DNA of 60,914 bases, filler included, from Basidiobolus ranarum (lineage: Eukaryota): the NCBI GenBank assembly GCA_040143965.1. It is 6 parts of 6 records of this genome, joined end to end, with 100 filler letters (N's around TTAATTAATTAA, not from the genome) between each part and the next. Parts side by side here need not be neighbours in the genome. Positions count along the whole stretch, not along the records: positions 20,362 to 30,435 come from JASJQH010000745.1; 5 more parts are not named here. One strand, 5' to 3'. Made by a program: the position numbers and the translations under genes. How positions within the stretch are numbered: position 1 is the first letter of the stretch; each line of letters begins with the position of its first letter. Shown here piece after piece: positions 20,362 through 50,763 of this stretch. A model generated the notes under the pieces. It had not been told where the DNA came from. It saw only the letters and a program-made list of their open reading frames with translations, and ran no database searches.

Positions 20362-20381
20362 GTAATCCTTGTGCAGGGGCC

Positions 20382-20412
<31 letters not shown>

Positions 20413-20445
20413 TTCAAGTGTCAGAGGTTCCGGAGAACTTGACAA
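20362..20445 (-). ncRNA. U6: U6 spliceosomal snRNA, 3' end cut by the contig edge
   Basis: Reverse complement reads AAAATTGGAACGATACAGAGAAGATTAGCATGGCCCCTGCACAAGGAT (ACAGAGA box, AGC triad), preceded by a 5' stem-loop, with a TATA-like TTTATAA about 25 nt upstream. Confidence 0.95.
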
Positions 20446-21019
20446 CTGTCACAAGGCAATTCACATTATAAATCTCGAAACAATACTGCTAATTAAACTT
20501 ATGGGACTCAACTAACTATCACAGGAAGTAGCCTTTAATCCAATGCCTACTTATTTTGATTGGACCATTACAAATTTTCTATTTTTGGTCATTACTCATA
20601 TCGTGGTACAATCATAATATGACTCCAGATGACTTTTTATATCATCGCTAGATTTTCGGTATTTTCGGTAGAGTTGACTACACACTAATTTAGCTAAGAC
20701 AGAAATATTTTTCTATCTGTCTCATACAAACCTCTAATATATGTACTATCATTACCAGTAAGCTCTCTAATGATACTTACCTTAATATATTCAGTATTAG
20801 ATGGTTCTTGAAAGAAAGTTACAAGTTTACGTTCCATAAGTGCTATTTCAGGAGTAGCAGCTCTCGATGCTGTAGATTTACCCGTACTTGTAGAAGTAGG
20901 TAACTTTTATGAGTCTTCTCCTAAAGATAACTCAATTGGTTTCATGAGCATACTTATATATCAGACATTTTTCACTCGACTTGTATACAAATTTAGGTAA
21001 ATCGTTTGAAACGACAAAA

Positions 21020-21101
21020 TGATGAGAGTGGGGTTCGAACCCACGCCTCCGAAGAGACTGCGACCTGAACGCAGCGCCTTAGACCACTCGGCCATCTCAC
21101 C
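21020..21101 (-). tRNA. tRNA-Leu(CAG), intronless
   Basis: GGTGAGATGGCCGAGTGGTCTAAGGCG-CTGCG-TTCAGGT-CGCAG-TCTCTTCGGAGG-CGTGGGTTCGAACCCCACTCTCATCA; complete cloverleaf with a long variable arm. Confidence 0.96.
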
Positions 21102-22837
21102 TCCATTTTGTTGTAACGCAATCCAGTAAATAAACAAAATAAGAAATTACTTACTAACAAAGAAACATTCTAAGATGTCGTGTTCTCAGAATAATATATA
21201 TCTAAACAAAGTGAATGTAAGACATATATACATAATTATATACTACTCTTCTACTTCCTATCTTCACATAATCTTTGCAACGTTAGTACCTACAAGATCC
21301 TCAACATATTTTGAAACTCAAATTGGATGCTTTGTCATAGAATTTTAGAAACGGCGTTGCCATGGTTAATGTAAAGATGTTTGTAGGTATGTAAATTGAT
21401 CAAACTAGAAAACAATATCTCAAAAGTAATTTTGCGGACTTATTTGTTGGCATACGGAATATGAGGAAAATCTAAAGTAAATATATGAAAACAGCTGCAG
21501 GATCCTTTTTAAAAATATAGAATTGTACATGCATCTATTGAGTGTGGCTTATTGTCCAACTATCAGGTTCTCACCGTTAAGGTGGATCATATATATAGTA
21601 TTGGTGTTTGGAGAGATCTGGTTGTTTGCAGTAACAACAATGGGAGTGGTAAAGCCTTCCTCATTAATGACAACGGTGTCTACATTCATTTTGGGCCAGG
21701 AACTTGCTATTCGCAAGTGGTTACTTGGAATAAAATGACAAAGAAGCCATCTGATGTCCAGGAAATGAAGGATCTGTCAATAGAAACCATAAGCTTACAA
21801 ATGGCAACTGTGAGAATAACGGTAATGGTGGGTGCAACCATGATTATATTAACCAGGCCGGACTGAATTCGAAAGACTGGCTCCCTAAGTTCTATAGCGA
21901 CCCTTGTTGGTATTAAAACTATCGCTTATGGCGTTGTCTGACATTCTTATCCTACTGAGTATGCCAATATCCATCGGTTGCTCCAAAGGAATATTTACTA
22001 CATTGCGACATGGAAAAATTTGAAGGTTGTATTAGCGGGCTTATTTCAGTCTCTTACTTCAAACTAATTCTCAGTAACAGACAAAAAGAAGATAAGATTG
22101 ATAGTGAAATTGAAGCTCAAGTACTATAAATACTGGTGTTCCTTGATTATTCAGTTGGCCATGTTAAATATACGAGCATATAAAGAACCAGCAGCTAATG
22201 AAGAGTTACACATGTTTCCTGTTATCAAGATATTTGAGTGGATAAGATGCCATTGCTATACGTTACAATGTAAGAGATAATGGACGAATTGACTATGTGT
22301 ACTTTTGGTAAACAAGCCTATCAGTAGAGCAAGAAAAAGAGATATGTGAAGGATGCTAGTAGCATGCCAATATTTACTTGTAATCTCGGACTACACTTGG
22401 GTAGCATTACAGCAAAACATGACTTTATGCACTTACCTACGACCAATCCATCTTTCTCCACTTGTCAAAGTGATGATAACTGGAACTTTCAGTGGGTAGA
22501 TAGTTCTCAAGCCACTCGTATCTATAGCAACCATACTCTTGGACTACAGCTTTCACTTGTGAGAATAATTTCGGCAATCTCAGCTACTCTCTCATGTTAG
22601 CATTTTCCCAATATCCATTTAGTACTGAATGAATCATTTTTGGATTTACTTTTCTCTTGTCTGAAGTAATAATTTTAAATATATCTCCTGGTGCAGTATC
22701 CTACAACCAATATTATCTTTTAATTGCACCATTGGTTACTTTGGTGATGTTTGTCATGTTGTAGCTTACCATAGTTGTCACAAAGTGTGAGGGACCAAGG
22801 TGAGCTTCAGGGTCCATAAGCTTTCTGTACTTAAAAT

Positions 22838-23027
22838 TGTTAAAGTATTTGGGAGCCTGTTGGAAGTGGTTTAGAGAATTAGAGAAATTGGTGTTTTCAT
22901 GTATTGATTTATTGAGTATAAAGTAGAAATTTATACTTTTGTCATGATCTAAGCAAACTGACGTATCAAAGATGTTACAAAAGGTCCCAGAAGCATGTGT
23001 GCAAAGCTTGGGGCTTCTGGATAACAC
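22838..23027 (-). mobile_element. Partial copia LTR (3' half)
   Basis: TGTTAAAGTATTTGGGAGCCTGTTGGAAGTGGTTT is nearly identical to the end of the LTR at 50290-50638. Confidence 0.8.
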
Positions 23028-23652
23028 TGAATAAAAATGATGGAGTTTGGTTCAGAATATCTGTAAGAGTAAAATGAGCTATGCTAAGATTCACAGAGAG
23101 AGAGAATTCACAGATTTCATGAGTATATGTACTGATTTGAGCTAATTGGCACTTGGCAATATAGTATGTAGCTGGTTGGATATGAAATAGGGAGTTGTAA
23201 AGATACAGGGAGAAATAATATAATGGAGGTAGTAGGCTTCAGCTGTTGGATTGGAAGAGCAACGTGTAGAGATTAAAGAACTACAAAAGTATGATTTGGG
23301 GAGTTTAGTGGATGTCAGAGAATTGAACTCAAAAGTCAAACAATCTCTTATATAAATGATGGTAATATGGTACCATCGTGATATATGCCACAAGTGAGTA
23401 GATATATAGAGAGAGCATATGTATAACCCTAGTAGCGTATAGTATTAGTAAGTAGTGGCATCTATCTGTATGAATTAAGGTAAGTACCAAACCTATAAAA
23501 CGTTTATGTACGTGCTGAAGTAGTTCTCTATAATTTACATACTAATCAAACAATTACGAGCAAGTGTGGATGTACTTTCAGTTGATCCGGAATGAGAAGC
23601 AGATATTGATCTGGAATAAGAGTAAGAATCAGGTTCAGAGCTATAGTTGTAT

Positions 23653-23689
23653 GATAATGCTTCCAAACAGGATAATGCTTCCAAACCGG
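23653..23689. repeat. Short tandem duplication
   Basis: ATAATGCTTCCAAAC[A/C]GG twice. Confidence 0.8.
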
Positions 23690-24040
23690 AACATCTACGC
23701 ATAGAATAGATATGGAATGCCTACGTATTGGGAAGGAAAAGACACTATGCATGAGTGAACCTATATAGCATTGAACTTATATACAGCCTTCAGTGATGTC
23801 GATGAGCAGTCAGCTTATACACAGCATACAATATAGATATTATGGTATCAAGCAACATTCTTCTTACAAATTGCTAATCAATTACGCTCATTGTTTGAAG
23901 TCTTTCACTACTAGAGCGCACCTCTATACTCCATATACACTTTACGTCATCCCATCTTTGCGAACCAGATAGAAGTAGGCTTCTCTACCAATACGAATTA
24001 CCGATACATATACTTAATAATAGTATTACAGCGCGGTACT

Positions 24041-24095
24041 TGCATGTAGTAAAGCAATACCTATCATGCATGTAGTAAAGCAATACCTATCATGC
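24041..24095. repeat. 26-bp tandem duplication
   Basis: TGCATGTAGTAAAGCAATACCTATCA twice. Confidence 0.85.
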
Positions 24096-24541
24096 AAATG
24101 TCTGAAAGCAGTAGTCTGAAGGCAGTAAAACTTCCAATCAGAAACTATTTTGTTCCAGAAATCCAAATTGGAATCTAAATTAAAACCTGATAGAATTTAA
24201 CGTGGAATACTAGACATATATAGTGGCTTACTTTAGTACTCTCTGTATTACTCTCAGTTTGTACAAACATTCATAGCCATATCATTCCCCAAGTACGAAC
24301 ATCAATAACGATATATTTATAGTAGTTATATCTAAGTACGAACATCAACAACGGTATTATCAATGGAAAAAATATAGACTTCGTGGATGAATAGCGTATT
24401 TATGATGGATATGATGGAAAAGCATAGACCTCTATCGGTGAATAGTGCATTAACAAACAGTGAACAGCAATAGATAGAAGAAATTTTCTCACATCCCGTT
24501 TCACCAACATGCACATCACTTCCCAAATTGATTCCCTCATC

Positions 24542-24620
24542 TTATCAGATGCATCTGATAATACATATTTCATTTTGATTCCCTAGTTTGGAACAACCTA
24601 GTTTGGAATAATTATCTGAT
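24542..24620. promoter_or_regulatory. Cluster of ATCWGATAA iron-GATA (SreA/Urbs1-type) sites including a perfect palindrome
   Basis: TTATCAGAT-GC-ATCTGATAA at 24542-24561 and TTATCTGAT at 24612-24620. Confidence 0.55.
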
Positions 24621-25022
24621 GCTAACACTTGGTATACAGTAACTCTCAGCGTGTAACATACTACATTATATATTCTTTGACACCTAACCCTAACCCACTG
24701 CTTTATATATCCTTTGACGTTACACCATATTTTCTTCAACCAAGTAAATCCCAAATCATCAGTAAACCCTAAATCGTCAGGTGGAATAAGCATACCATAT
24801 ATAGATGGATCCGATGAATATTCGGAAGCATTATTCGAAAGCGTTGATCAAAACATTGGATTTGCAATGGTTTCTGTAAACCGGGATAATAAGGAATCTG
24901 CTGAACGTGTCGGGATAATTCGTATAACTTTATTTTAAGAGTTTACAGTGAGAAGGGCAGGACACGCTTGGAATGTACGTGTCCCAGGACCTACTTGGAA
25001 ATTATTATGATATCAATTGCAC

Positions 25023-26695
25023 TCATTCCAGTTGAACAGTGTGAGTCTCTAGTTCGTGCTTTTCCTCTGGATTAACCCAAGTGTCGGGAAGTCGAGGCTC
25101 AATGAAACGGAGGATGAACGATGCAACCGTGACGCAGCAGTGGCAGACTCCCAGGATAAAGAAAGGAGCACCAGCCATCCAAGTATCAAACAGATATCCA
25201 CCCAACTTGGTGATGACCAAGATCGAAATTGACCCACAGAAACTGTAAGCTCCAGCAATACTACCACGTCTTCCAGGTGGGACATAGGGACCGTTGACTA
25301 GCGACATGCTTGAAATGATCATACCAATCTCTCCGCAACCAATGAGAGTGATCCAAAAGTAGTTGATCTTGTTGTATGGGTCATGGTTGAATGCCAATCC
25401 AAAGCATCCAATGACACCGAACACACCACCAACAAAAGTGACAGTGGATCTTCTGAAGTAATGATGGGCCCAACCGTAGAAAGGAGCAACCAGTAAAGCA
25501 ACGATTTGCCCGGTACCGGTCATAAGCTCGGACTGGCCTTGACCTACAGGGCAGAAGAGCTTATCAGGGCTCTTACATCTTCCGGACAGGTAAAACACCT
25601 TCGAGACCCACATAGTGACGAAGGTCGTTAACATCACCTCATCCGATCTTGCCTACAAAAATAGATTTCATTTAGTTTCAATGACTGGACAGAATGTCAA
25701 AGAAAACTCTATGTAGTTACCACAAAACTCGTCGCATATCCCAAGGCCACTCTAGGGTCTTTTGCAGCCATAAATCCTTTTTTGAGTAGCAGGAAATAGT
25801 TTTCCCGCTTAGGCCTATTAACCTTCAGGCTCTTCTTTTCCTGCTTAACACCTGAGGAAAATTTGTTATTTAGTTTTCTCCACAACCATCTATCTGGCCC
25901 CTCCCACACGTCCGTGTGACTTGGTAGCATGAACCACAAAATAACACCCAACGCAATTGCACTCCCTCCGATGATATGAAAACCTTTGTTAACAGCAGTG
26001 AAGTAGTCTGGTGTGCTGTTTGCGAGAAGAGCTGGAACACTTGACAGTACGAATACACCCAATAGAGCACCTAAAAAAATAACAACAGGCTTAGCCACTG
26101 CTCATATGCTATTACAGCGAAGTGACGATGGGACCCTACCACAGCCAGATGTTGCTCCGATAAAACCAGAGATGAATCCACCACTCTTGACAATAATGTC
26201 ACCGAGGGTTGCAGTCATCATTGTCGTTGCTCCACTGCTTCCCATACCAAACAGAAGGCGAATCAACAATAGATCGGGATAGACATTTCTTGCGTGTGGG
26301 TAAGCAATCAGAGCTGTTCCTAAGCAGAAGAAACTTATTGCGTAGACGTAACGCTTTCCAGTAAGGTCAGATATTGGACCCCAGAAGATGCACATGAAAA
26401 TCACAATGATTTCTTGGTACATTGTGAGACTTCCAACGACATTACCCTGTTCAGTGACACTCACACCAAGGTTGGTGATAATGATCGAACTTTGAATAAT
26501 GCTCTGGAACACGAGCAACGCAATGGTGGCAAAGACTCCCAAAATTAAAGCCAAAACATTCAGATATCCAACATTGGGATTCACGGGGACGACTTTGAAC
26601 AAGTACTTCACTGGAGCCGATCCTTCTTGTGCTTGAACGGGGATATAGGAAGGCTCTATGTCACCCATTCTCTCCGTCTTTTCATCCAGACTCAT
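25023..26695 (-). CDS. MFS transporter (about 12 TM), three exons
   Basis: Motif A-like WGPISDLTGKR, RLLFGMGSSG, C-terminal half PPGRRGSIAGAYSFCGSISIL...LGGYLFD; introns at about 26073-26138 and 25653-25719 join the three ORFs. Confidence 0.9.
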
Positions 26696-27310
26696 GAAGT
26701 AAAACTGAAATTTTATCAGATGGTTTCTCTCAACAGTATTTGCTTGACTTATATACCGCCGCTACCTAATTTATGAATATCTGAATAGAAACTCTTAAGT
26801 AGAACAAGCAATATGAATACGAGTGGGTCTAAATTAAGTGATTCTTCCTAAACGATGTCCTATCATATAGCGGAAGCCATGCAGAGGCTGTGTAGCCTTC
26901 TTCGCAACCCCATGATCTTCTGGATGTACATCTGTTGGGGCTATCCTTGCCTATCAAGCAATTAGCCTACTTTGCCCCTTGAGGTGGATGTGAGTTAGTG
27001 GACAACTATGGTCATTTTGAGATAGTGCACACTTAGAGGCAGGGTTGAAGGCGACAATACACTTCCAAGTTAAGGCTAGGGTAAGGTTTTATCCACACCC
27101 AAGTCTACTGTAAAGAAAATGGCCATTTCAGCAATGCCAAGCTGACTAATCCCCATATCCTCAGAAACGAGATTTTTCTTCAAATGATTCTGATGACTAG
27201 TAGAAATAACTAAATTTGAACAGACTAACTATTACACATGTGGCTGTACATACGTATTTTTGCTTGTGTAATGAACGGCTCGAAGTAAATGGACGCTATT
27301 TGCCATAGAA

Positions 27311-27557
27311 ATCTGATTGTAAGCTCTGAGAATAATCTGATCAGACTTCATACCTAGTAAATTTCTGCTTGTATGTGGTACATTCTGGATCTACACTCGA
27401 TATTTATCTGATCTGTATGCGAAGAATTTATCTGATGGAAATGTATCCAATCATCTCTGTTCATTCATGCACCATACCTACTTGCCATATTTCCTAGAGT
27501 GTAAAGTATGAATCAGATAAACTTGCTCACATTGACTTTCATAACATCTTATCTGAT
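27311..27557. promoter_or_regulatory. Cluster of ATCWGATAA iron-GATA sites in the divergent MFS / Cys-rich gene promoter
   Basis: Exact sites at 27404-27412, 27428-27436, 27512-27520 and 27549-27557; partial ATCTGAT at 27311 and 27335; one more exact site at 26713-26721 beside the MFS start; TATATA at about 27743. Confidence 0.7.
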
Positions 27558-27801
27558 CTTCTTCAGGTTGTAGTGATGTACCACTTTCTATTCCTCTTTG
27601 CAGCATTTGCGTAACTTCGGATCAGCCCAGATTCAACGTTTTATCTCACAACAAAATCTTTCTACAGCAATGAAAACTTCCCATTTTAGGCAAACATCGG
27701 ATAGTTTTTAGAACGCTAGCATCAATACCCCAACTTAAAGCCTATATATACGGCAATGCAGTCGCGTATTGAATAGCACATCAGCTAAAAACTACTTCAA
27801 G

Positions 27802-30435
27802 ATGCGTTTTCTTCTCTTAGTGCCTCTTTTGGCAGCTGCTGTGGCTTTCCCCGCTGAGGACTCAACCAATGTCAACCTCAAGAAGCGCGCTTTGACATGT
27901 TCTGGAGCTACCTACGATGTACCTGCATTCAGCACTTGCATTGAGAACTGTAATATGGTAAGTGACATACGCATGCTTCAGTACATTCGTGGTCATGCTA
28001 AATTAACTATGATTGTTCATTCTAATAGAAAGCCGGTCTGTTATTCTATAACGACTTCTCTAAGGATCCCACCAGCCCTGGTTTCATCAAGTCTCTTTCA
28101 TACGAATGTGACTCTGCCAACCCCGACCGTACCTCCTTTATGACAAAGGCTGGTATCTGTATGGTTGGCTGCACTACCGCTGAGCAAGATGGTTATACCA
28201 ATGGGTATAAAGCCATGTGTGGTTGGTATACTGAACACAAGAATGATGTTTGCACACCTGCAGTGAGCTCTACTTCAGTTATTCCTGAGCCCACTACATC
28301 AAGTATCCCTGAGACCCCATCTCCCTCAGCCATTGAATCTGTCACCCCTTCTATAACTGTCACCTCCAGTTCCGCCTCCGTTACCGATTCTTCATCTGCT
28401 TCCGAAGTTGTTCCAACATCTCCTCCCACCTCAGTATCCGTCACTCCCACAGCGAGCCCGATTCCACCTTCTGGCAAATGTGTGACATACGATGGCCCTG
28501 TTCCAGCTCCATGTATTCAAGGTTGCCTTCTTGTAAGTATTATTTAATTTAAATACATAACATCTCTTTCTTTGACTAAGAAATCTTCGATGGCTTTAGG
28601 TTTCTGGTAGAAAACTCTGGAATCGCTACATCTGGAAGCCTACTAGCGAAAACTTCATCCCATCCCTTGGTTATGAATGTGATAGCAGTAATCCAAATCA
28701 CGAGGAATTTTTGAGAAACTCTGCGTCTTGTGTTCAAAGCTGTACTTCTTACCCTGACTACCAGAGCAAGCAAGGTCCTATTTGCAGCTGGTACGAGGCA
28801 AATAAGGCCAACACAATTTGTACAGCACCTGTCCCTACTGTGACTCCTACCACTACTGTTTCTGAAACTCCCTCACCTACTTGTCAACCATTCCGTGCAC
28901 CCGATCGTGGACAGTGCATCAACAACTGTAACGACGTTAGTATAATTTATGATTGAAATATTTCCGTACTTCTTTTATTTACTGTCTTTAAATATATAGC
29001 AAGCTGGAAAGACCTTCTTTGGCGACTATTCCCAAGATCCCCAAAATGCTAGCTTCATGAAATCCTTGTCTCTCGAGTGTGATTCGGAAGATTCTTCTCA
29101 CACTTCATTCATGATTAAAGCTGGTACCTGCATGGTTGGATGTTCAACAGAAGAGCAAGGAAAGTATACCGATGGATATAGAGCAGTATGTAACTGGTAC
29201 ACTGCAAATAAGCAAGGCGGTTTTTGTAACCCTAGTGCCACATCCGTGTCATCTTCTGTAGTCCAAACACCCACCTCAATCCCTACCAACTCTCCATCTG
29301 CATCGGTCAGTATCTCATCCACTATCAGCTCAACAGGTCCCACTCCTACATGTGTAGCAAGTGCCCCCTACACTGGCCCACTTTTCGGATCATGCATCAA
29401 CAACTGTAATGAGGTATGTGATTTGTGTATCACGTAAAGAAAATCTTAGATTCTAACTAAATTCTGGTTCATAGCAAGCAGGAAAGGTTCTCTTCGGTGA
29501 TTTCTCCAAGGATCCTACCAGCCCCAACTTGATCAAATCCTTGTCCTTTGAATGTGACTCAACCAACCCTCAACGTACTGCCTTCATGACTAAGGCTGGT
29601 ATTTGCATGGTTGGCTGCACTACTGCCGAACAAGACACTTATACCAACGGATACAAGGCCATGTGCAATTGGTATCAAGAACACAAAAATGATACACCTG
29701 GAAACTGCCCCGGTGAAAATACTACTAGTGTGTCCTCGAGTTTGCCTACTACCATTCCTACTTCAGTTGTCCCAACTATATCTGCATCTGTCACCACCTC
29801 CCCATCTGTCACTGCCTCTCCAGCCCCATCCAGTACCTGTACCCCAGGCGGCGGCCCTAGCTACAATGGACCAACTTTCAGTGCTTGCATTGATAACTGT
29901 AATGAAGTAAGTTACTGATACAGTGTGCAAATATTTCCTATTTATTTACATATTCTTTATTAATACAGCAAGCAGGAAAGGCTCTTTTCAGTGATTTCTC
30001 CAAGAACCCTAACAGCCCTAACCTGATCAAATCTTTATCCTTTGAATGTGACCCAACCAACCCTCAACGTACTACCTTTATGACCAAGGCTGGTATTTGT
30101 ATGGTTGGCTGCACCACTGCTGAACAAGATGTTTATACCAACGGATACAAGGCCATGTGCAACTGGTATGAACAGAACAAGAATGGTTCCCCTAATACTT
30201 GTACTGGTGAAAATACCTCCAGTGTTATTGTCATTCCTACTACTGTTGTCCCAAGCAACACTATTGTCCCAACTGGCTCTGCCACCGCTTCTCCTGCTCC
30301 ATCTGGTACTTGTACCCCTGGTGCCGCTCCTGCCTACACCGGTCCTACCTTCAGCACTTGTATCAACAGCTGCAATGATGTATGTTAATAATTTTAGATG
30401 ATTAGTAGAGGGGAACATCGACGTGATGGGAAACC
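27802..30435 (+). CDS. Secreted protein with at least 5.3 tandem ~80-aa Cys-rich domains separated by S/T/P linkers; 3' truncated
   Basis: Signal peptide MRFLLLVPLLAAAVA, Kex2 site KKR, repeat Y.GP.FS.CI.NCN-intron-.AG..F..DFS.DP..P..IKSLS.ECD..NP.RT.FMTKAGICMVGCTTAEQD.YTNGYKAMC.WY..K; phase-0 introns start at 27958, 28533, 28936, 29414, 29907 and 30380. Confidence 0.88.
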
Positions 30436-41349: not shown

Positions 41350-44300
41350 TTAAATTTGTTTCTGTAACTCGTTAAATTTTCTTGCTAGAGTACGCCCTAT
41401 TTCAGCCATCGGTAAAGGTCTGTCCATGTCTCGATGTGTACAGTTAATGTCGAAAATCTCAATATCACCAAGAATGTAAGGTTTCCACAAGTCAGGAGAC
41501 ACTAGCGGGATAGACCGATGCTCCACTTTTGTTGCTCGAAAGAAAATTGCGTTATCGCTATAAACAGGTGGTGTAAACCCCTTCAATATCTCGAGATTAT
41601 TTTTGATGACATTGTGCGTTTTTTCCCATAAATATTCGCCGGCATTTGGATCACCTTCGTCACAATAGCGATCTAAAAATCTGATGTACCAACTATCTCT
41701 GTCCGCCTCTGTTTCGTAGTTTGGCGGTGAATATTCCGGATTGATATCTAAAAGAGCAAGTAGCGCTACCTTTTCTCCTTGTTCTTTGAGGCGCGTCGCA
41801 ATGCTGTGAGCAATATAAACGCCTAAAGACCATCCAAGTAGATGATATGGTCCATTAGACTGAACTTTACGTATTTGTTGAATATAATCGGATATCATAT
41901 CATCCATTGTTTTCGCCACCGGTGTCTCGTTGTTGAGTCCGCGAGCCTGTAGACCATATATCGGCTGATCAGGGCCTAAATGTTTAGATAGACCAATGTA
42001 GCCCCAACTTAAACCGGAAACGGCGTGAATACAGAAAAGAGGAGCTCGAGAGCCTTGAGTATTTAAAGGAAGCATTACTGAAAAAGAATTTCGTTGGTGG
42101 TTAGTATCTTTTTCAAGTAGACGTTGCGCCAATTTCGCAACAGTAGGGGCTTCAAATAGCGTGTGTAGAGCAATTTCGACACCCAACATGGTTCGAATAC
42201 GGTTGAGCATCTTAACGGCGAGCAGAGAGTACCCACCAAGCGCAAAGAAATTATCGCAGCGTCCGACAACGTCCAGGTTGAGAGTTTCAGCCCAGATTTG
42301 GGACAGTGCTTCCTCAATTTCTCCTTTCGGTGCTTCGTAAATCTGATGAACAAAGTCACCCTCATCTGGCTCTGGCAATGCTCGGCGGTCTAGTTTGCCG
42401 TTAGATGTCATGGGAAACGTTTCCAGGCGTACAAATGCAGATGGAATCATATATCCAGGCAGTTTACTTTCTAGGTGGACTCGCAACTTGCTAGAGAGCT
42501 GTTCGTCAAATTCAGCTGTGATGTAAGCGATTAAGCGCTTATCACCATCTTTGTCCAGCGCAAGTACAATGGACTCTCGCACCTGGGGATGCTTCATGAG
42601 GAGTGTCTCAATCTCCCCGGGTTCAATTCGAAATCCGCGAATCTTTATCTGAAAATCGTTACGACCCAAAAATTCGATGTTGCCATCTGGTAGATAACGA
42701 GCTAAATCACCAGTTTTGTACATGATTGAACCTTCCAGTGGACAGAAGTGGTCACTTATGAATTTTTCAGCAGTCAACTCGGGTCGGTTTAAGTAACCGC
42801 GTGCAACACCGACTCCCCCAATGTATAATTCTCCTATTGCCCCAAGCGGCACCGGTTGTCCTTGCTTGTTAAGTAAATATATCCGAGCATTTGCAATTGG
42901 ACGGCCGATAGATACCTTTCCATTTGTAAGAGTATTGCACTCACTTGTCCAAATCGTAGCTACATGAGTTTCAGTTGGGCCATAGGCATTGTATATGACA
43001 CCCTGATGAATCATATTCTGAATCAATGTTGAATTAGGTGCCTCCCCTGTTAATATCAATGATAGTGGTTTACTCAAGCTTTGTAGATTTCTCCCATCCT
43101 GCAGAAGCGCAGGTGGTAATATTGCGTGAGTTATTCCATTTATCTCCAAATACTTCCAAAGTTCATCGCGATCTTGACGGACCATATCGGTTGGGATGTA
43201 CAAATTTGCCCCGCGACTTAAGGTTAATAAAATTTCCCAGATACTCACGTCGAAGCTGAAAGATGCAAACTGTAGAACTCGACTGGAAGGCTGAATTTCA
43301 AAGCCGGCCGAAGGAGCCATAATGAGGTTCACGATTGATTTATGTTCCATCATTATTCCCTTTGGCATACCAGTGGAGCCGGATGTGTAAATCACATAGG
43401 CAAGATGTTTTGCAGTCAACGTTTCTACCTTTGGATTAGTAGTGGATGAGTTCAAAGTTCTATCCAGATCCAGTACAGTGAGCGATGCAAGGGTATCATT
43501 GCCTATTGCTCGTCTACCTATCTCATCAGCTATCAGAATCACCGGTTTTACATCAGCAAGAATGTACCCGAGCCTTTCACTCGGATACACTGGATCAAGC
43601 GGTATAACCGCACCGCCAGCTTTCAAGACCGCCAAAAAGGTTACAACAATCGCTGGACTACGCGCCATACACACTGCAATATACATATCTGGTTGAACAC
43701 CCATATCTATTAGTTCATGCGCCAGACGGTTTGCACGCGCATTCAGCTCAGCATAACTAAATACACAATCCTCATATGTTACCGCGGCTGCGTGAGGAGC
43801 ACGCTCGACAATATCTTCAAATAGATGGTGAATACAGAGAAGATCTGGATATGGTGAAGCGGTTTCATTCATTGTTTCGATCAAAGTTTTGCGTTCCTCA
43901 TTAGGAAGTATTTCAAGTTGCGAAACAGGTGCATTTGGTGAATGTTGCAAAGTATCCACCAGACTCTGTAGTGCCTTTTGCATGTAGTCACACACACGAG
44001 CTGGATCATGGGGATAAACGATTTGAGCGGTCAAACCCAGCGAATCGCCAAAATCTTCCACAGAAAGGAGTATTGAATAGTTGGAGCGTTCTTGTGTACT
44101 CAAAATTTCAACTCCAGGTACCGTTGAGCCGACACCTAGTGTCGTAGCATTGTGGCGGTAATTTAGAAGTGTACTGAAAAGTGGTACCCCGGCTGGTAAT
44201 GCTGCACAACGCTGGGCTATAGAAAGAGACGCATGTTCATGCTCAAGCAACATTGCCAAACACTTATGGGTATGAAGCACGGTTTCTAGAACGCCCCGCT

Positions 44301-47300
44301 CATTCACATCTACACGGAATGGTAATGTGTTGATGAATAATCCCATAGCTTTGTCGGCTCCTTCACCTGCGTGCATTCGCCCAAATAATACTGTGCCAAA
44401 AACCACCCGTTCTTGGTCACTGGCGCATGCTAGAACTTGTGCCCACGCCAGATGAAATAAACTGGCCAAGGTCACACCTAATGTTTTGGCTTGAAAGCGA
44501 AGTCGTTCATTTAACTCTTGCGATAACATTTGATGTGCCTCTGTGACCTGTGAACCATCACAGTAGACGTCGGAAAGTCCGAATGGGAGTGTCGGTGCAT
44601 CAACATCACCTAACATATCAGAAAAGAACTTTTCATGCTCTTGATTGCTCAGTCCTGTGCGGGATTGCGCAACTAAGTTTCGGAAATGCTGCGCAGTTGG
44701 CAAATCGCTTTCCCGATTGTTAAAAAATGCCTCCACCTCAGATTGCATCACATCTACCGTAGAGTGGTCACCGATGAGATGGTGAAGCAACTGAAGAAGA
44801 GACCAGCGACCATTACTCTCTTGCGTGATCGCATAGCTCAACAAAGGAGCTTTGGTTATGTCGGTGCGATAATAACAAGGGTCATATTTTTCTAATAACT
44901 GTTCGGAAATTGGCCCATTGGCTGGATTAAAAGTATATTCGGTGACTGCAAGCGACGCTTGACGGCAAACAACCTGGACAGGTGTGGATATATTCTTCCA
45001 AATAAAGGCAGTGCGCAGGATATCATGGCGATCTACTATCCGCTGGATGATATTCAGGTACTTATCAAGCAACTTCCGGTTTTCAAAGGTCATTTGGGTG
45101 ATGACTAAATAGGGATCCCCTTTGTAAGGATCCCCTTTAGCAGCCAAGAGATGATGAAATAGAATTCCATCTTGTAGTGGGGTTAAGCCATAGATATCTT
45201 GGATGTTGGCCACGCCGCCAGGGATCACTTCTGTTATATAGTCAATTTCGGTTTGCGAGAGGTTGACCAGTGAAAGTAAGTCTGGAGTTATTTTTTCAAT
45301 ACCAGGCTTAATTAATCTGGGGGGTATGACTACTTCACGACGTTGGAGTGTTTGGGCAAGCTCACAGAGAGTTGGTTTTTCGAATAACGTACGTATAGAT
45401 ATCTTTAAATTAAGGCGACTTAGACGTTCTATCATCTGCACGGCGAGAAGTGAATTCCCTCCCAGCGAGAAGAAATTATCATGACGACCAATTTCATCCA
45501 AATTTATTAACTCAGTCCAAATCTTCGTCAGTGTAGCCTCGATCTCTCCTTGTGGTGCTTCATAAGATTTCTGGGTAAAATCCTCTCTATCTGGTGCTGG
45601 TAGTGCCTTGCGATCTACCTTTCCATTGGATGTTAATGGTAAAGTATTTAGACGCACGAAAGCGGCTGGCAACATATAATCAGGAAGGTTGGCTGCAATT
45701 AAATCGCGTAGCGCGCTGATAAGTAGCTTCTCTCTGGGTTCCGCCACAATATAAGCTACTAAATGCTTACTGCTGTCCTTGCCCATTACCAGTACGACGA
45801 CTTCCTTAACCTGGGGGTGCCTAATGAGTAGCGCTTCGATCTCGCCTGGTTCGATCCGAAAACCGCGAATCTTAATCTGGTGATCTTTACGTCCAAGAAA
45901 CTGAATGTTGCCATCAGGAAGATAACGAGCCAGATCTCCGGTTTTGTACATACGAGCTCCTTCTTGCTTGCTGAATGGATCGGGAAGAAATCTTTCGTCA
46001 GTCAACTCTGGCCGATTTAAGTATCCGCGCGCGACGCCGGCCCCGCCTATATACAATTCGCCAGTTGCCCCTAATGGCACTGGTTGGCCTGCCCCGTCCA
46101 ACAGGTATATCTGCTTGTTCGCTAATGGTCTTCCAATAGGGATACTGCTTGTTGACTGTTCTTTGTGCAGAGGGATTGTATAAAACGTAGCGAAGGTAGT
46201 GCATTCAGTTGGACCATACCCGTTAATCAGTTGCTGTGGAGGAGTGTTGCCTATTATATTGTTGATAACTGCAGGATTGATAATATCTCCTCCAAAAAGT
46301 AGATATTTTAACTGCGGAAAGATAGGTTGCAGTGGTTCCGCCATTTGGACTAACAAAGCAGGCGTTAAAAACAAGACATTAATTTTCTGCCGTTGCAAAC
46401 ATTGCACAAATATATTTGGGGTGAGAACAGTGTAGTGGTCTACAACGACAAGGGTACCGCCATTTAACAAAGGCGCCCACATTTCAAAAGTAGTTGCGTC
46501 GAAAGCTGGGTTGCATACAAAACCAACACGATCGTTAGGCCCGATGTCAGTGAAGCCATTGTTGATAACTAGAGAAGCAATGGCCCGATGAGGCACCAAC
46601 GCACCGTTTGGGGTGCCAGTTGAACCGGAGGTGTACATTACATATGCCACATCCAAATCTGGAGAGAATAGGTCAAGATTGGCTATTGGTATATCTAAGG
46701 AATTTTTGAAACAAGAGGGGATACGGAACAACTGCATGTTCTCGGTGAGTGAAACATTGGTATGTGTATCAGTTATCAATAGTCGAGCTGCACAATCCAA
46801 AATTATCGAAGTTTGCCGCTCCACGGGAGCATGAGGATCAATAGGAACATATGCTGCCCCCACTTTAAGAACAGCCAATTGAGCAATAACTAGCTCCATA
46901 GAACGCTCAAGCATGGTAGCAATAAAATCACCTGGTTTAATACCTAACTCGACAAGGCGATGTGCGATGTGATTGGCGCTTGTATTTAAATCCCTGTAGC
47001 TTAATGATCGATCTTTGTATACTAATGCGATTGCGTGTGGCGCACGCTGAGATTGCTTTTCAAATAATTGATGAATCCCTTGATTTTCGGGAAATTCACG
47101 CTCCGTTTTGTTCCAGTTAACCAGGAGTTGTTGTCGCTCGTAGGTATGAAGTAAATCGATACCTCCAATTGGGATTGTAGGCTCGTTGGTTAGTGCTTCC
47201 AGTAGTTTCAGGAAACGGGGCATGTGTCCGATCTCGTTATTAACACTAGTTAGTGTTGGGTCCTTTCTGGTGTCAAAAAGTGCATCATTTAGAACATCAG

Positions 47301-48870
47301 GGTCATAAATCCATCGAAAGCTTCCATCTTTTGAACACAATTGAATTGTGAGGTGATCTCCGCGAGCCGCTTCTTGGGAGCTTTGAGTGCCAGTATGTGC
47401 TGGAATGTTGTTGATATCGTCGGAAGTATGATCTAATACTAAGGCTATAACGATATGCCAAGGTCGTAATGAACGCAACCCACTAACATCTTGGAGTTCT
47501 GGGCGACGTGCAATGAGGTCAAGAGGAAATGTAGAGTTCTTTTTCAGAAGTGAACATTCAGTCTCTACCTTTGCACGAACCTCGTTGAAGCAATCCTGTA
47601 AATCGATTTCAATCTCCATTGGCACTACATTGGCTAAGGAATTGCCCATCGCGGATTTAGTTATCATCGGCGCCCAACCCAAATGGAGATGCCTCTTCTC
47701 AGTGATCCGTTTTAAATAAATCAGGAAAGCACTCAAAATGAACTCGACACGTTCAACTTCTGGAAGCTTCAACAAATTGTTGGGGATATTCCATTCAGTC
47801 GCATGCCAGCGTCGTACTGTTCCCGACGTATCATGAACGAAAGGGTGATGAAGTGAGTTGAAACGTTGCAAACGTCTTACCCAGAAAGTCTCTCGTTCTG
47901 CTAACTTTTCATAGGTCTCAGTTAATATGTGGGCATCTGCGTCCGATATCATGGGTAATTGATCGCCTGTGCGAAGCCCTAGTTGTTGCGCCAGTTTCTG
48001 GGCTTCAAATGGCTCTCCAATAAGACTGGTGAATGCGCTAATGCTAACGGTATCACTACCTGTCGCTACATGCCAACCATCAGAGTCGATTTTCAGCAGG
48101 GTTCCTGGTCTACTTTCAGAGCGCTTCTCAAGGACTACCAAGTTTAACACGCGCACAATGCAATTAGACAGCAATAATTTAGGTGTAGCCAACGAGTTTG
48201 GATGAAGATCTCCAAAGTTTAGAGCCCGCACCAAAGCAGAGAGATTTTGAGCCGTTAGCTGCCAGCGCAAAAAACCAGCACCTAAAGGGCGGCGACGACG
48301 TGGATAAAAACTTCTTTTCGCCAAGTCTTGAGGGCAGGATCTTAATGTTCCCAATGCCAAGTTTTCTACTAATTCAGTGAAACCTTTACTCGCTGCTTGG
48401 TAACACTTCAAGTTAAGTGACAGAGCGTTGTCAGTGGAAGAGATGTGTACCGGATACTGTACGTACACATTCCCGGCATCAACTTTACTGATAATGCGGT
48501 GCCAGGTAATTGCGTAGGTGTTTTGGAGCTCTAATAGGGCCCAGGAAGTAGCATGTGTTCCGGCGTAACGAGGTAAGGGAGCGTCATGATAATTAATTGC
48601 GTGACTCATCCTATCTAATAGCGACTCCGGTAGAATGATCGGGTTGACTATCGAAAATAGTACATCCGCTGATCTCTCGTCTAGCATGGTACTAAGCTCC
48701 TCTACTGTGCCCACGCAAGTTATTTTTTCGTTCAAAGCCCAATCTGTAACCAACTTGTCTGTTGGTAACACAGCTTCAATGATATGGCCTGCTGCACATA
48801 GGCGTTTTGCACATTCGATGGTTAGTGTGGTGCCACCGACGATAATACATGAGAAGGAATGTCTGCTCAT
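41350..48870 (-). CDS. Intronless bimodular NRPS, F-C*-A-T-E/C-A-T-TE, 2506 aa, bacterial type
   Basis: Formyltransferase NYHDAPLPRYAGTHA; A domains YTSGSTG.P, YGPTE, YKTGDL, QIKIRGFRIEPGEIE, NGK.DR (twice); T domains LGGNSLL and LGGYSLL; C domain with FHHLLAAKGD and HHLIGD; TE with GWSLG and CTHRDM. Confidence 0.97.
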   Translation of the reverse strand: MSRHSFSCIIVGGTTLTIECAKRLCAAGHIIEAVLPTDKLVTDWALNEKITCVGTVEELSTMLDERSADVLFSIVNPIILPESLLDRMSHAINYHDAPLPRYAGTHATSWALLELQNTYAITWHRIISKVDAGNVYVQYPVHISSTDNALSLNLKCYQAASKGFTELVENLALGTLRSCPQDLAKRSFYPRRRRPLGAGFLRWQLTAQNLSALVRALNFGDLHPNSLATPKLLLSNCIVRVLNLVVLEKRSESRPGTLLKIDSDGWHVATGSDTVSISAFTSLIGEPFEAQKLAQQLGLRTGDQLPMISDADAHILTETYEKLAERETFWVRRLQRFNSLHHPFVHDTSGTVRRWHATEWNIPNNLLKLPEVERVEFILSAFLIYLKRITEKRHLHLGWAPMITKSAMGNSLANVVPMEIEIDLQDCFNEVRAKVETECSLLKKNSTFPLDLIARRPELQDVSGLRSLRPWHIVIALVLDHTSDDINNIPAHTGTQSSQEAARGDHLTIQLCSKDGSFRWIYDPDVLNDALFDTRKDPTLTSVNNEIGHMPRFLKLLEALTNEPTIPIGGIDLLHTYERQQLLVNWNKTEREFPENQGIHQLFEKQSQRAPHAIALVYKDRSLSYRDLNTSANHIAHRLVELGIKPGDFIATMLERSMELVIAQLAVLKVGAAYVPIDPHAPVERQTSIILDCAARLLITDTHTNVSLTENMQLFRIPSCFKNSLDIPIANLDLFSPDLDVAYVMYTSGSTGTPNGALVPHRAIASLVINNGFTDIGPNDRVGFVCNPAFDATTFEMWAPLLNGGTLVVVDHYTVLTPNIFVQCLQRQKINVLFLTPALLVQMAEPLQPIFPQLKYLLFGGDIINPAVINNIIGNTPPQQLINGYGPTECTTFATFYTIPLHKEQSTSSIPIGRPLANKQIYLLDGAGQPVPLGATGELYIGGAGVARGYLNRPELTDERFLPDPFSKQEGARMYKTGDLARYLPDGNIQFLGRKDHQIKIRGFRIEPGEIEALLIRHPQVKEVVVLVMGKDSSKHLVAYIVAEPREKLLISALRDLIAANLPDYMLPAAFVRLNTLPLTSNGKVDRKALPAPDREDFTQKSYEAPQGEIEATLTKIWTELINLDEIGRHDNFFSLGGNSLLAVQMIERLSRLNLKISIRTLFEKPTLCELAQTLQRREVVIPPRLIKPGIEKITPDLLSLVNLSQTEIDYITEVIPGGVANIQDIYGLTPLQDGILFHHLLAAKGDPYKGDPYLVITQMTFENRKLLDKYLNIIQRIVDRHDILRTAFIWKNISTPVQVVCRQASLAVTEYTFNPANGPISEQLLEKYDPCYYRTDITKAPLLSYAITQESNGRWSLLQLLHHLIGDHSTVDVMQSEVEAFFNNRESDLPTAQHFRNLVAQSRTGLSNQEHEKFFSDMLGDVDAPTLPFGLSDVYCDGSQVTEAHQMLSQELNERLRFQAKTLGVTLASLFHLAWAQVLACASDQERVVFGTVLFGRMHAGEGADKAMGLFINTLPFRVDVNERGVLETVLHTHKCLAMLLEHEHASLSIAQRCAALPAGVPLFSTLLNYRHNATTLGVGSTVPGVEILSTQERSNYSILLSVEDFGDSLGLTAQIVYPHDPARVCDYMQKALQSLVDTLQHSPNAPVSQLEILPNEERKTLIETMNETASPYPDLLCIHHLFEDIVERAPHAAAVTYEDCVFSYAELNARANRLAHELIDMGVQPDMYIAVCMARSPAIVVTFLAVLKAGGAVIPLDPVYPSERLGYILADVKPVILIADEIGRRAIGNDTLASLTVLDLDRTLNSSTTNPKVETLTAKHLAYVIYTSGSTGMPKGIMMEHKSIVNLIMAPSAGFEIQPSSRVLQFASFSFDVSIWEILLTLSRGANLYIPTDMVRQDRDELWKYLEINGITHAILPPALLQDGRNLQSLSKPLSLILTGEAPNSTLIQNMIHQGVIYNAYGPTETHVATIWTSECNTLTNGKVSIGRPIANARIYLLNKQGQPVPLGAIGELYIGGVGVARGYLNRPELTAEKFISDHFCPLEGSIMYKTGDLARYLPDGNIEFLGRNDFQIKIRGFRIEPGEIETLLMKHPQVRESIVLALDKDGDKRLIAYITAEFDEQLSSKLRVHLESKLPGYMIPSAFVRLETFPMTSNGKLDRRALPEPDEGDFVHQIYEAPKGEIEEALSQIWAETLNLDVVGRCDNFFALGGYSLLAVKMLNRIRTMLGVEIALHTLFEAPTVAKLAQRLLEKDTNHQRNSFSVMLPLNTQGSRAPLFCIHAVSGLSWGYIGLSKHLGPDQPIYGLQARGLNNETPVAKTMDDMISDYIQQIRKVQSNGPYHLLGWSLGVYIAHSIATRLKEQGEKVALLALLDINPEYSPPNYETEADRDSWYIRFLDRYCDEGDPNAGEYLWEKTHNVIKNNLEILKGFTPPVYSDNAIFFRATKVEHRSIPLVSPDLWKPYILGDIEIFDINCTHRDMDRPLPMAEIGRTLARKFNELQKQI

Positions 48871-48956
48871 TATTTGCTACAGTTTCCTAGCTAGTGTCTA
48901 CTGATTTCAAATTTATAAGGGTTATTTTGGTCTGTCCGAAATCCGTATTTTAACAC

Positions 48957-50289: not shown

Positions 50290-50763
50290 CATTGAAATTA
50301 GCATTGCCTAAACACCTATATAGTCATGTATAGCTTAGTACTTCTTTATGTTATATTTCACCAAGGTATTATCCATTTTTCTCAATTGGAATTTATTTAG
50401 AATATTTTTTGACCAACTTAAAAGTTATCAGATATATAGTTTTTCAAGCTTGTGCTAGAAGTCCCAAACTTTGTTCACATGTTCCTGGGACCTTCCTTAA
50501 CCTATTTTACATGTTGGTTTGTTTACATCTTGACAAACCCATAAATGTCAACTTTCAACTCAAGAAATCAATAAGTGAAAGCCACCAATTTCTCTAATTC
50601 TCCAAACCACTTCCAACAGGCTCCCAAATACTTTAACAGTTTATGAGCCCCAAGCTTGCACTCTCTGTAATGTCAACTTCTTAAAATTTTGGATCTTGTC
50701 CCTCTTCTGAAAAATGGATGTAATCAATAATCAAGTTTGGAAAATTAAAATGAAAATGCTGCT
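50290..50763 (+). mobile_element. Second copia element 5' end (LTR 50290-50638, PBS, decayed gag start), opposite orientation
   Basis: LTR ends ...CTTTAACA, then GTTTATGAGCCC (copia-type GGTTATGRGCCC primer site), then QVWKIKMKMLL, a copia gag N-terminal motif. Confidence 0.85.

Follow-up and report, generated by a model that had tools for sequence, protein, structure and literature searches.

A divergent gene pair of Basidiobolus ranarum, encoding a CFEM-like repeat protein and a 12-TM MFS transporter, as a candidate iron-starvation uptake module

Iron acquisition is central to the gut life of Basidiobolus and to the disease caused by zygomycete fungi, and we know of no iron regulon mapped in the Basidiobolus lineage. 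A divergent pair of genes in Basidiobolus ranarum, encoding an MFS transporter and a Cys-rich repeat protein, raises the question of whether such a regulon can be recognized from its promoter and, if so, what the two proteins might take up. The pair (K7432_010624 and K7432_010625) lies on the third (20362-30435; 10,074 nt) of six ~10-kb B. ranarum contigs, which are joined by N44-TTAATTAATTAA-N44 linkers into the 60,914-nt stretch analysed here (the window). An earlier sequence-only reading had proposed a divergent pair on a single contig, and both gene models, when rebuilt, agree with P0001 and P0009. The proposed span, 25023..30435, contains the genes as described, but position 30435 is the end of contig 3, and the repeat-protein gene continues past it. 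The locus is laid out as follows.

25023..26695, minus strand: MFS gene K7432_010624, 511 aa; exons 26695-26140, 26070-25721 and 25652-25023
26696..27801, no strand: shared divergent promoter, 1106 bp; five ATCWGATAA sites versus 0.061 expected
26750: TATA-like box on the MFS side, about 55 nt ahead of the MFS ATG
27743: TATA-like box on the repeat-gene side, about 55 nt ahead of the repeat-gene ATG
27802..30435, plus strand: secreted repeat-protein gene K7432_010625, 3' end cut by the contig end
27802-27957, 28029-28532, 28600-28935, 29000-29413, 29475-29906 and 29969-30379, plus strand: exons of K7432_010625

In the splice model, the MFS gene has two introns of 69 and 68 nt; its exon-3 translation, searched as query, is matched at 100% identity by P0001 (an NCBI protein from the same contig). 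The introns of the repeat-protein gene are all in phase 0, each placed after the third Cys of a repeat, and a sixth GTATGT donor follows the last exon at the usual position. P0009 (753 aa) equals the rebuilt 751 residues plus 'VC*', which comes from reading into the next intron.

The part of the repeat protein encoded on contig 3 comprises five complete domains and the beginning of a sixth.

27892..28262, plus strand: CFEM-like domain 1, aa 31-130; Asp at the family-invariant position
28473..28830, plus strand: domain 2, aa 201-297; Lys at the Asp position
28876..29236, plus strand: domain 3, aa 313-411; Asp retained
29345..29717, plus strand: domain 4, aa 448-551; Asp retained; the domain used for modelling
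29832..30211, plus strand: domain 5, aa 590-695; Asn at the Asp position
30305..30379, plus strand: start of domain 6, aa 727-751; remainder past the contig end

The earlier description of a secreted, Cys-rich protein is supported by a signal-peptide-like N-terminus, and the inter-domain linkers form stalks that are 50-75% S/T/P. A signal-like N-terminus and a hydrophobic C-terminal tail are each present in all 11 relatives inspected, and one paralogue, P0010, has a CBM19 match near threshold. Domain 2 is divergent, with 28-36% identity to the other repeats.

What kind of domain is repeated? A profile of ~100 aa, made from the five repeats, is matched by 78 of 79 representative hits, the sole miss being an archaeal protein. 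Among the proteins that match it is P0023 (1.6e-23 and 2.5e-22), a member of a canonical-like Basidiobolus subfamily (A3) that hhalign aligns with the repeat subfamily (A1) at 100% probability and an E-value of 3.4e-47. P0023 passes the Pfam CFEM model at 23.1 bits (cut-off 22; E 7.6e-5), its residues 169-232 aligning to profile positions 9-66 of 66, and four A3 members are called CFEM in UniRef. P0023 is the one family protein of the 85 scanned to pass: P0009 and the exons of K7432_010625 give no match to Pfam CFEM (PF05730) at E<=1, and PDB profile searches with both subfamilies found no CFEM chain by sequence. By its profile relationships, the repeat is classified as a divergent CFEM-superfamily domain, although the chain of homology depends on a single Pfam pass and on names assigned automatically. 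The profile link to the subfamily that contains P0023 led us to reject a fold family that is new and has no relation to CFEM.

The cysteine pattern shows where the repeats depart from the canonical domain. Across the ten Cys columns of the family, all five complete repeats read 1110011111; with the columns mapped by eye to CFEM numbering from the P0023 Pfam match and the hhalign alignment, this corresponds to six of the eight canonical Cys (C1, C2, C6, C7 and the C5/C8 pair), with C3 and C4 absent and an extra terminal Cys pair added. Eight Cys in canonical CFEM spacing occur in none of the five complete repeats. The sequence-only reading had concluded from the lack of CFEM spacing that the system was distinct; its observation on the strict consensus stands, but the conclusion is not supported, given the hhalign relationship to CFEM-annotated paralogues. 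On ferric reductases, CFEM-like domains that have six or four of these Cys are known (PMC9635878). Between the C3 and C4 positions, the family carries an Asp with at least 90% conservation; this candidate ligand lies farther from its flanking Cys than in the CFEM consensus, and is kept in three of the five complete repeats.

The AF2 model of domain 4 (pLDDT 88.4) has four helices. Csa2 (4y7s_A) ranks 4th of 48,161 against this model (weak Z of 3.6, 78 aligned, rmsd 4.9) and 12th of 48,161 against a model of the paralogue P0082 (weak Z of 3.9, 74 aligned, rmsd 3.9), and these VIA Z values of 3.6-3.9 are tied with those of unrelated helical chains. Foldseek returned nothing at E<=0.001 for either model; among named Atlas structure clusters, the closest consists to 100% of PF05730, at a TM of 0.53.

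The family is distributed among zygomycete fungi and Malassezia, and is much expanded in B. ranarum (>20 named paralogues), so most of its members need not act on iron. CFEM is said in reviews to be confined to Ascomycota and Basidiomycota (PMC13586796), and our search of the literature on CFEM and early-diverging fungi found no description of such a family. If the family is a working relative of CFEM, the fold would be older than Dikarya, and the locus would give a specific pair of genes to test for heme or iron uptake, one that also has homologues in Mortierellaceae and Mucorales.

The divergent partner is matched by Pfam MFS_1 in both of its halves. Its twelve hydrophobic segments, with a long central loop, and the alignment of its Atlas model to 12-TM bacterial MFS proteins of 444-453 aa (TM 0.77-0.88 over 430 residues) bear out the view that it is 12-TM rather than of the 14-TM SIT type. 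The SIT/ARN class of siderophore-iron transporters was rejected on this segment count, and none of the 21 relatives carries a siderophore-transporter name. The best curated matches, NF040986 (MamH; E 7e-21) and NF040998 (MamZ; E 8e-20), are bacterial magnetosome families linked to iron handling; however, they cover the C-terminal half only (residues 286-483) and score far below their cut-offs (74.8 bits versus 300, and 70.7 versus 650), and membership was rejected. No characterized relative was found beyond these sub-threshold matches; the transporter belongs to an uncharacterized family that occurs in Basidiobolus, Mortierellaceae and Mucorales.

The case for iron regulation comes from the extended GATA motif ATCWGATAA. 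The sequence-only reading had placed five sites in the promoter, four of them within 154 bp, and three more downstream of the MFS gene; an exact-motif scan recovers them all.

26713..26721, minus strand: ATCTGATAA site, 18-26 nt upstream of the MFS ATG, with the TATA-like box on its other side
27404..27557, both strands: four-site ATCAGATAA cluster at 27404 (minus), 27428 (minus), 27512 (plus) and 27549 (minus), 245-398 nt upstream of the repeat-gene ATG
24542..24620, no strand: three more ATCWGATAA sites at 24542, 24553 and 24612, 403-481 nt past the MFS stop

Two of the downstream sites form a perfect 20-bp palindrome (24542-24561), and no convincing ORF and no Rfam family was found around the three. 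Elsewhere in the window, single sites occur at 3896 and 50425. ATCWGATAA is over-represented in the SreA regulon of A. fumigatus, and the sites that act in vivo at U. maydis sid1 and at S. pombe str1 and fio1-fip1 conform to it (PMC2610380). Among zygomycetes, an in silico report places the motif in the promoter of rfs of Mucor lusitanicus, which is iron-repressed (PMC9226013), and two GATA factors similar to SreA have been described in Rhizopus microsporus (PMC12638772).

That the cluster arose by chance or from a repeat, and has no regulatory role, is hardly credible from the counts. The window contains 10 exact sites versus 2.58 expected per 60.9 kb (in keeping with the earlier rough expectation of one per 25 kb), and 10 were reached in 0 of 100 shuffles. 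In first-order Markov simulations, the eight sites within the 3.5 kb of 24300-27801 (0.139 expected) were reached in 0 of 1500 runs, with a maximum of 3, and the five in the 1106-bp intergenic region in 0 of 4000. The site flanks differ, and neither a longer repeat containing the sites nor a repeat family including them was found. It is less far-fetched, yet still improbable, that the sites serve another GATA factor (nitrogen AreA/Nit2 or a light-responsive one), the pair answering to nitrogen or some other signal rather than to iron. Each ATCWGATAA encloses a generic HGATAR core, and zygomycete GATA families are expanded, with members that bind similar regions (PMC12638772). However, the 9-mer is about 60-fold enriched locally and is found 1, 0, 8, 0, 1 and 0 times on contigs 1 to 6, whereas the corresponding counts of WGATAA (15, 15, 20, 21, 21 and 17) and HGATAR (41, 30, 43, 40, 44 and 50) show no enrichment of generic GATA sites on contig 3. 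The ATC extension is present on five of six WGATAA in the shared promoter and three of four downstream of the MFS gene, that is, on 8 of 10 in the two MFS-flanking regions, and this partly palindromic extended form is tied to SreA-type factors (PMC2610380). The promoter enrichment of ATCWGATAA is as expected for a SreA/Fep1/Urbs1 regulon, and the motif statistics are best read as iron-GATA control of the pair, as proposed earlier; the support is good, but in silico only. The SreA-type extended motif could also flag iron regulons in the Basidiobolus lineage.

Basidiobolus makes rhizoferrin. Iron regulation is also compatible with a pair that has nothing to do with heme: the MFS would move a siderophore, by export or import (e.g., the rhizoferrin-type carboxylates of zygomycetes), and the repeat protein would share the promoter and nothing more, acting as a wall mucin, an adhesin or an effector-like relative of CFEM proteins. 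We consider this possible though somewhat unlikely. Among the nearest structural neighbours of the MFS model are 12-TM bacterial proteins, and at TM 0.71 these include a cluster named 'bacillibactin exporter'; siderophores are a heavy investment of Basidiobolus (PMC7466969); for many CFEM proteins, functions apart from heme binding are described (PMC13586796); and both the expansion of the family in B. ranarum and the absence of the Asp from two of the five complete repeats point the same way. Against this, four of the five promoter sites are nearest the repeat gene, which argues that it is a direct target and not a bystander, the family-wide Asp conservation and the CFEM kinship fit ligand capture, and no siderophore synthetase was found on contig 3.

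We lean towards the reading in which the two divergent genes form an iron-starvation module of B. ranarum, with a CFEM-like capture protein and a 12-TM MFS under SreA/Fep1-type repression. Since sites of the iron-repressor type are packed into the promoter of a CFEM-like gene and transporter pair, the pair is probably an iron-starvation uptake module. When iron is abundant, a GATA repressor of the SreA/Fep1 type probably switches both genes off. Once expressed, the repeat protein would be secreted and mucin-like, with at least six tandem, four-helix, disulfide-locked, divergent CFEM domains, and its S/T/P-rich stalks probably keep it in the cell wall or at the wall surface. On the model of the Candida CFEM hemophores and their co-regulated membrane partners, it most likely binds an iron-bearing ligand extracellularly, ferric heme being the leading candidate, and the MFS most likely carries either this captured ligand or a siderophore through the plasma membrane; which way transport runs and whether the two proteins touch are, like the ligand and the iron repression, inferred. 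A bolder form of this reading, in which the zygomycete and Malassezia proteins are an ancient, pre-Dikarya hemophore branch of CFEM, here as at least six domains strung along a mucin stalk, with a 12-TM MFS as their dedicated importer and with SreA-type control, seems to us unlikely. If the hemophore reading is true, the locus would represent a third fungal heme-uptake architecture, beside Candida CFEM-Frp and S. pombe Shu1-Str3, and the first candidate heme-uptake machinery for Basidiobolus and, via homologues in Apophysomyces and Cunninghamella, for Mucorales.

In Schizosaccharomyces pombe, Shu1 is a surface heme receptor and Str3 an MFS heme importer, both repressed by Fep1. The likeness lies in a Cys-rich surface protein and an MFS under a (here putative) iron-GATA repressor with sites that fit ATCWGATAA; the Basidiobolus MFS, being 12-TM, is set apart from the SIT-type Str3 by topology alone.

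The Candida hemophores Rbt5, Pga7 and Csa2 have a single CFEM domain each, whereas at least six are arranged in tandem in one Basidiobolus protein. Like PF05730 and Csa2 (4y7s), the repeat domain is fungal, extracellular by prediction, about 70-100 aa long, helical and disulfide-locked; unlike them, P0009 and 84 of the 85 scanned family members fall short of the Pfam model. As in Candida CFEM, an Asp is conserved between the third and fourth Cys positions, a candidate counterpart of the Csa2 Asp; the domain is without Cys 3 and 4, has longer spacing around the Asp, and gains an N/C-terminal Cys pair. The S/T-rich stalks are likewise shared, and relatives of the repeat protein have GPI-like tails. 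As for layout, the claim of a distinct system is not supported: FRP1-PGA7 and FRP2-CSA1 of Candida, head to head on common promoters and iron-induced, are already CFEM/membrane-partner pairs under iron control (PMC9635878). In both fungi, a gene for a Cys-rich helical domain faces a gene for a polytopic membrane protein across a common promoter, and the C. albicans pairs are repressed by Sfu1, an iron-type GATA factor of the kind predicted to act in Basidiobolus. The differences are the partner, a 12-TM MFS rather than a ferric-reductase-like protein, and the host, a zygomycete outside Dikarya in which heme binding is putative. In layout the pair mirrors PGA7-FRP1 of Candida, except that an MFS stands where the reductase-like partner would be. 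The locus probably represents a familiar type of iron-starvation uptake module that turns up in a lineage where it was not expected.

Both genes of the divergent pair lie on the third of the six ~10-kb pieces that, separated by linkers N44-TTAATTAATTAA-N44, make up the 60,914 bases. By protein search, the MFS transporter is the Basidiobolus ranarum protein K7432_010624, and the repeat protein, encoded on the same contig, is K7432_010625.

Features of the six joined contigs
3-845, minus strand: Nup93/Nic96 fragment, contig 1, running past the contig end
5500-6783, minus strand: PHD-finger protein gene, contig 1
20332-20443, minus strand: U6 snRNA gene at the very start of contig 3, the match extending into the linker Ns
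20362-30435: third piece, holding the MFS gene and the repeat gene
21020-21101, minus strand: tRNA-Leu(CAG)
25023-26695, minus strand: MFS gene, K7432_010624
27802-30435, plus strand: repeat gene, K7432_010625
41350-48876, minus strand: NRPS, an intronless open frame of 2508 residues, contig 5
53753-53915, minus strand: U1 snRNA gene

The NRPS comprises an N-terminal formyltransferase domain, AMP-binding and carrier domains (two of each), a single condensation domain and a thioesterase, and its GC content (44-45%, against 33-40% in the flanks) fits that of Basidiobolus NRPS genes of bacterial origin (PMC7466969). A lone ATCTGATAA is located at 50425, ~1.5 kb upstream of the NRPS, and another at 3896 on contig 1, within a 116-residue open frame that has no family match.

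The MFS gene model encodes 511 residues in three exons, and the NCBI protein from the same contig (P0001) is 100% identical to the exon-3 translation used as query. Both halves of the transporter are matched by Pfam MFS_1; it contains twelve hydrophobic segments and a long central loop, and its Atlas model compares with 12-TM bacterial MFS proteins at TM values of 0.77-0.88. Relatives at 34-44% identity come from B. ranarum itself (a paralogue), B. meristosporus, Podila, Mortierella, Apophysomyces and Pilobolus, and those from Ascomycota and Candida share 25-31% identity. No characterised protein was found among these relatives; the best curated match, MamH/MamZ, covers only the C-terminal half and scores far under the cut-offs. 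We note that two cysteines within residues 326-338 of P0001, Cys328 and Cys336, are eight residues apart and at least 90% conserved in 11 sequences, and are positioned just past what would be helix 7 of a 12-TM arrangement.

The repeat protein begins with a signal-peptide-like N-terminus, followed by five complete domains of ~100 residues and the start of a sixth, and the linkers between them (20-75 residues) are 50-75% Ser/Thr/Pro. Pairwise identity is 67-76% among repeats 1, 4 and 5 and 51-56% between these three and repeat 3; repeat 2 shares only 28-36% identity with any other repeat. Each intron of the six-exon gene is in phase 0 and directly follows the C-x3-C-N-[DE] motif of a repeat; the array therefore arose through duplication of an exon-intron unit. 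A GTATGT donor occurs again after the sixth such point, the contig ends 56 nt further on, and the NCBI model (P0009, 753 residues) continues into that intron (window 30380-30435), reading VC*; the gene is therefore cut off by the assembly, and its C-terminal end, possibly a GPI signal or a chitin-binding module, falls outside contig 3. The other five contigs showed no continuation of the gene: domain 4, as a tblastn query, matches 28029-30211 only. The database name of K7432_010625 carries no 'partial' flag although the protein is not whole.

Pfam has no match to the repeat protein or its exons. An exhaustive search of 1.84 billion representatives retrieves 79 proteins at E ≤ 0.001, of which a profile built from the five repeats matches 78, the one miss being an archaeal protein. 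The named members belong to B. ranarum and B. meristosporus, to Mortierella and Linnemannia, to the Mucorales genera Apophysomyces, Cunninghamella, Gilbertella, Zychaea, Dichotomocladium, Radiomyces, Circinella and Fennellomyces, and to the basidiomycete skin yeast Malassezia pachydermatis (P0047), so that the family ranges over zygomycetes and at least one Dikarya lineage. P0058, a member without a name, resembles P0047. The usual form, consisting of a signal peptide, a single domain, an S/T-rich stalk and a hydrophobic C-terminal tail (present in 11 of the 11 relatives inspected), looks by its layout like a GPI-anchored wall protein. More than 20 named paralogues are present in B. ranarum, often as adjacent pairs. 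The paralogue P0010 has a CBM19-like C-terminal module at residues 331-387 (19.3 bits, cut-off 20.1), and three others (P0053, P0083 and P0089) also have CBM19-like ends, with Pfam matches weaker than that of P0010; P0089 is named 'CBM family 19' by UniRef. Such ends suggest that Basidiobolus paralogues may use chitin-mediated attachment to the wall as an alternative to a GPI anchor.

Cysteine framework and profile comparison suggest a link between this family and CFEM (PF05730). In 81 complete domains compared, four cysteines, arranged as two C-x3-C pairs, are invariant, and three more pairs are each present or absent as a unit, a pattern that predicts the pairings 49-86 and 3-98. Four forms result: 34 domains have four cysteines, 8 have six, 28 have eight through an additional N/C-terminal pair (all five complete repeats of K7432_010625 among them), and 6-7, from B. 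ranarum only, show the canonical CFEM arrangement. The canonical-like form aligns to the subfamily of this locus with an hhalign probability of 100% (E = 3.4e-47), and one of its members, P0023, scores above the Pfam CFEM threshold (23.1 vs 22 bits, E = 7.6e-5), with residues 169-232 covering profile positions 9-66 of 66; four other canonical-like members are 'CFEM domain-containing' according to UniRef. By-eye reading of the alignments indicates that the domain of this locus retains CFEM cysteines 1, 2, 5, 6, 7 and 8 but not 3 and 4, and has the terminal pair in addition. Within the stretch from the Cys 3 to the Cys 4 position, an Asp shows at least 90% conservation across the family; in the Candida CFEM hemophore Csa2, an Asp in that stretch ligates the ferric heme iron (PMC9635878). 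This Asp is retained in repeats 1, 3 and 4; Lys replaces it in repeat 2, and Asn does so in repeat 5. Reduced-cysteine relatives have precedent, since ferric reductases carry CFEM-like N-terminal domains with six or four of the cysteines, with Asp or Asn (PMC9635878). Against kinship, the Pfam CFEM model is reached by only one of the 85 family proteins scanned, and profiles of the subfamily of this locus (A1) and of the canonical-like subfamily (A3), searched against PDB sequences, retrieve no CFEM chain, just antibody light chains and low-complexity matches.

Repeat 4 is modelled by AF2 from a 43-row alignment as a confident four-helix structure (pLDDT 88.4), and the model of a paralogue, P0082, has pLDDT values of 92-98 across its domain. 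The sequence-only reading had proposed CFEM as the fold to compare. In exhaustive VIA searches, Csa2 (PDB 4y7s_A) ranks 4 of 48,161 for the repeat-4 model (Z 3.6, rmsd 4.9, 78 aligned) and 12 of 48,161 for the P0082 model (Z 3.9, rmsd 3.9, 74 aligned), the match spanning almost all of both domains; the Z values, however, are just 3.6-3.9 and tied with those of unrelated helical chains, and Foldseek against PDB returns nothing at E ≤ 0.001 for either model, its top rows being chance helical matches. The Z values would say little alone; the ranks of Csa2, a target named beforehand, are suggestive. An Atlas structure search has as its best neighbour outside the family a cluster from Ascomycota with 100% PF05730 (TM 0.53 over 75 residues), and an ESM Atlas feature search with the domain gave no usable match. 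We consider the repeat domain a probable remote homologue of CFEM.

The eight iron-type GATA sites reported from the sequence were confirmed as exact copies of ATCWGATAA, five in the shared promoter (26713, 27404, 27428, 27512 and 27549) and three downstream of the MFS gene (24542, 24553 and 24612). One site lies 18-26 nt upstream of the MFS ATG, between the ATG and a TATA-like box at 26750, and four lie 245-398 nt upstream of the repeat-gene ATG, for which a TATA-like box is located at 27743. Two of the downstream sites form a perfect 20-bp palindrome (24542-24561); all three (24542-24620) are 403-481 nt beyond the MFS stop, and no gene, ORF or Rfam family was found nearby; they may act on the MFS gene, on an antisense RNA or on a gene that lacks annotation. 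We reject a transposon or tandem array as the source of the sites, whose flanks differ and which no repeat family includes. De novo motif search in the SreA regulon of A. fumigatus yielded ATCWGATAA, which also accommodates the in vivo sites at sid1 of U. maydis and at str1 and fio1-fip1 of S. pombe (PMC2610380). Rhizopus has SreA-like GATA factors (PMC12638772), and in Mucor an in silico match to the motif has been described for the iron-repressed rfs promoter (PMC9226013); the supplements of the Rhizopus DAP-seq paper give targets as JGI gene numbers only, without motif strings.

The whole window contains 10 copies against 2.58 expected, and 10 were reached in none of 100 shuffles. Locally, 24300-27801 contains 8 copies against 0.139 expected (8 reached in 0 of 1500 local first-order Markov simulations), and the 1106-bp intergenic region 5 against 0.061 (0 of 4000 such simulations), and we regard a chance cluster as extremely improbable. 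A different GATA factor could regulate the same sites, each of which includes the generic HGATAR core. This is quite improbable in our judgement: the generic motifs WGATAA and HGATAR are no more frequent on contig 3 than on the other five contigs, the ATC extension is present on 8 of the 10 WGATAA sites that flank the MFS gene on its two sides, and the enrichment is thus confined to the extended motif.

The pair is probably under iron-repressed control: an SreA-like factor would occupy the sites when iron is sufficient and silence both genes, which would be expressed upon iron starvation. The repeat protein would be secreted, its stalks O-glycosylated, and retained in or on the wall, where it would display several CFEM-like domains to capture an iron-bearing ligand; the MFS transporter may then carry across the membrane either the captured ligand or a siderophore. 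The pair might instead be iron-regulated and unrelated to heme: the transporter would export or take up a siderophore, and the repeat protein would serve as a wall mucin or as an effector. Siderophore genes are abundant in Basidiobolus (PMC7466969); the likeness to CFEM and the Asp conserved across the family fit ligand capture, and we find this alternative rather unlikely.

CFEM hemophores are already known, as are control of the SreA type and the head-to-head pairing of such genes with one for a membrane partner; new at this locus are the lineage, the changed cysteine framework, the tandem array and the MFS partner. CFEM is confined to Dikarya according to reviews (PMC13586796), and literature searches on CFEM with early-diverging fungi or Mucoromycota yielded no description of this family; a few paralogues are already tagged CFEM in databases through automatic UniRef names. 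Like the Candida pairs PGA7-FRP1 and CSA1-FRP2, which are head to head around a common promoter and belong to the genes that iron regulation induces most strongly (PMC9635878), the two Basidiobolus genes have the same arrangement, here with an MFS transporter as the partner.
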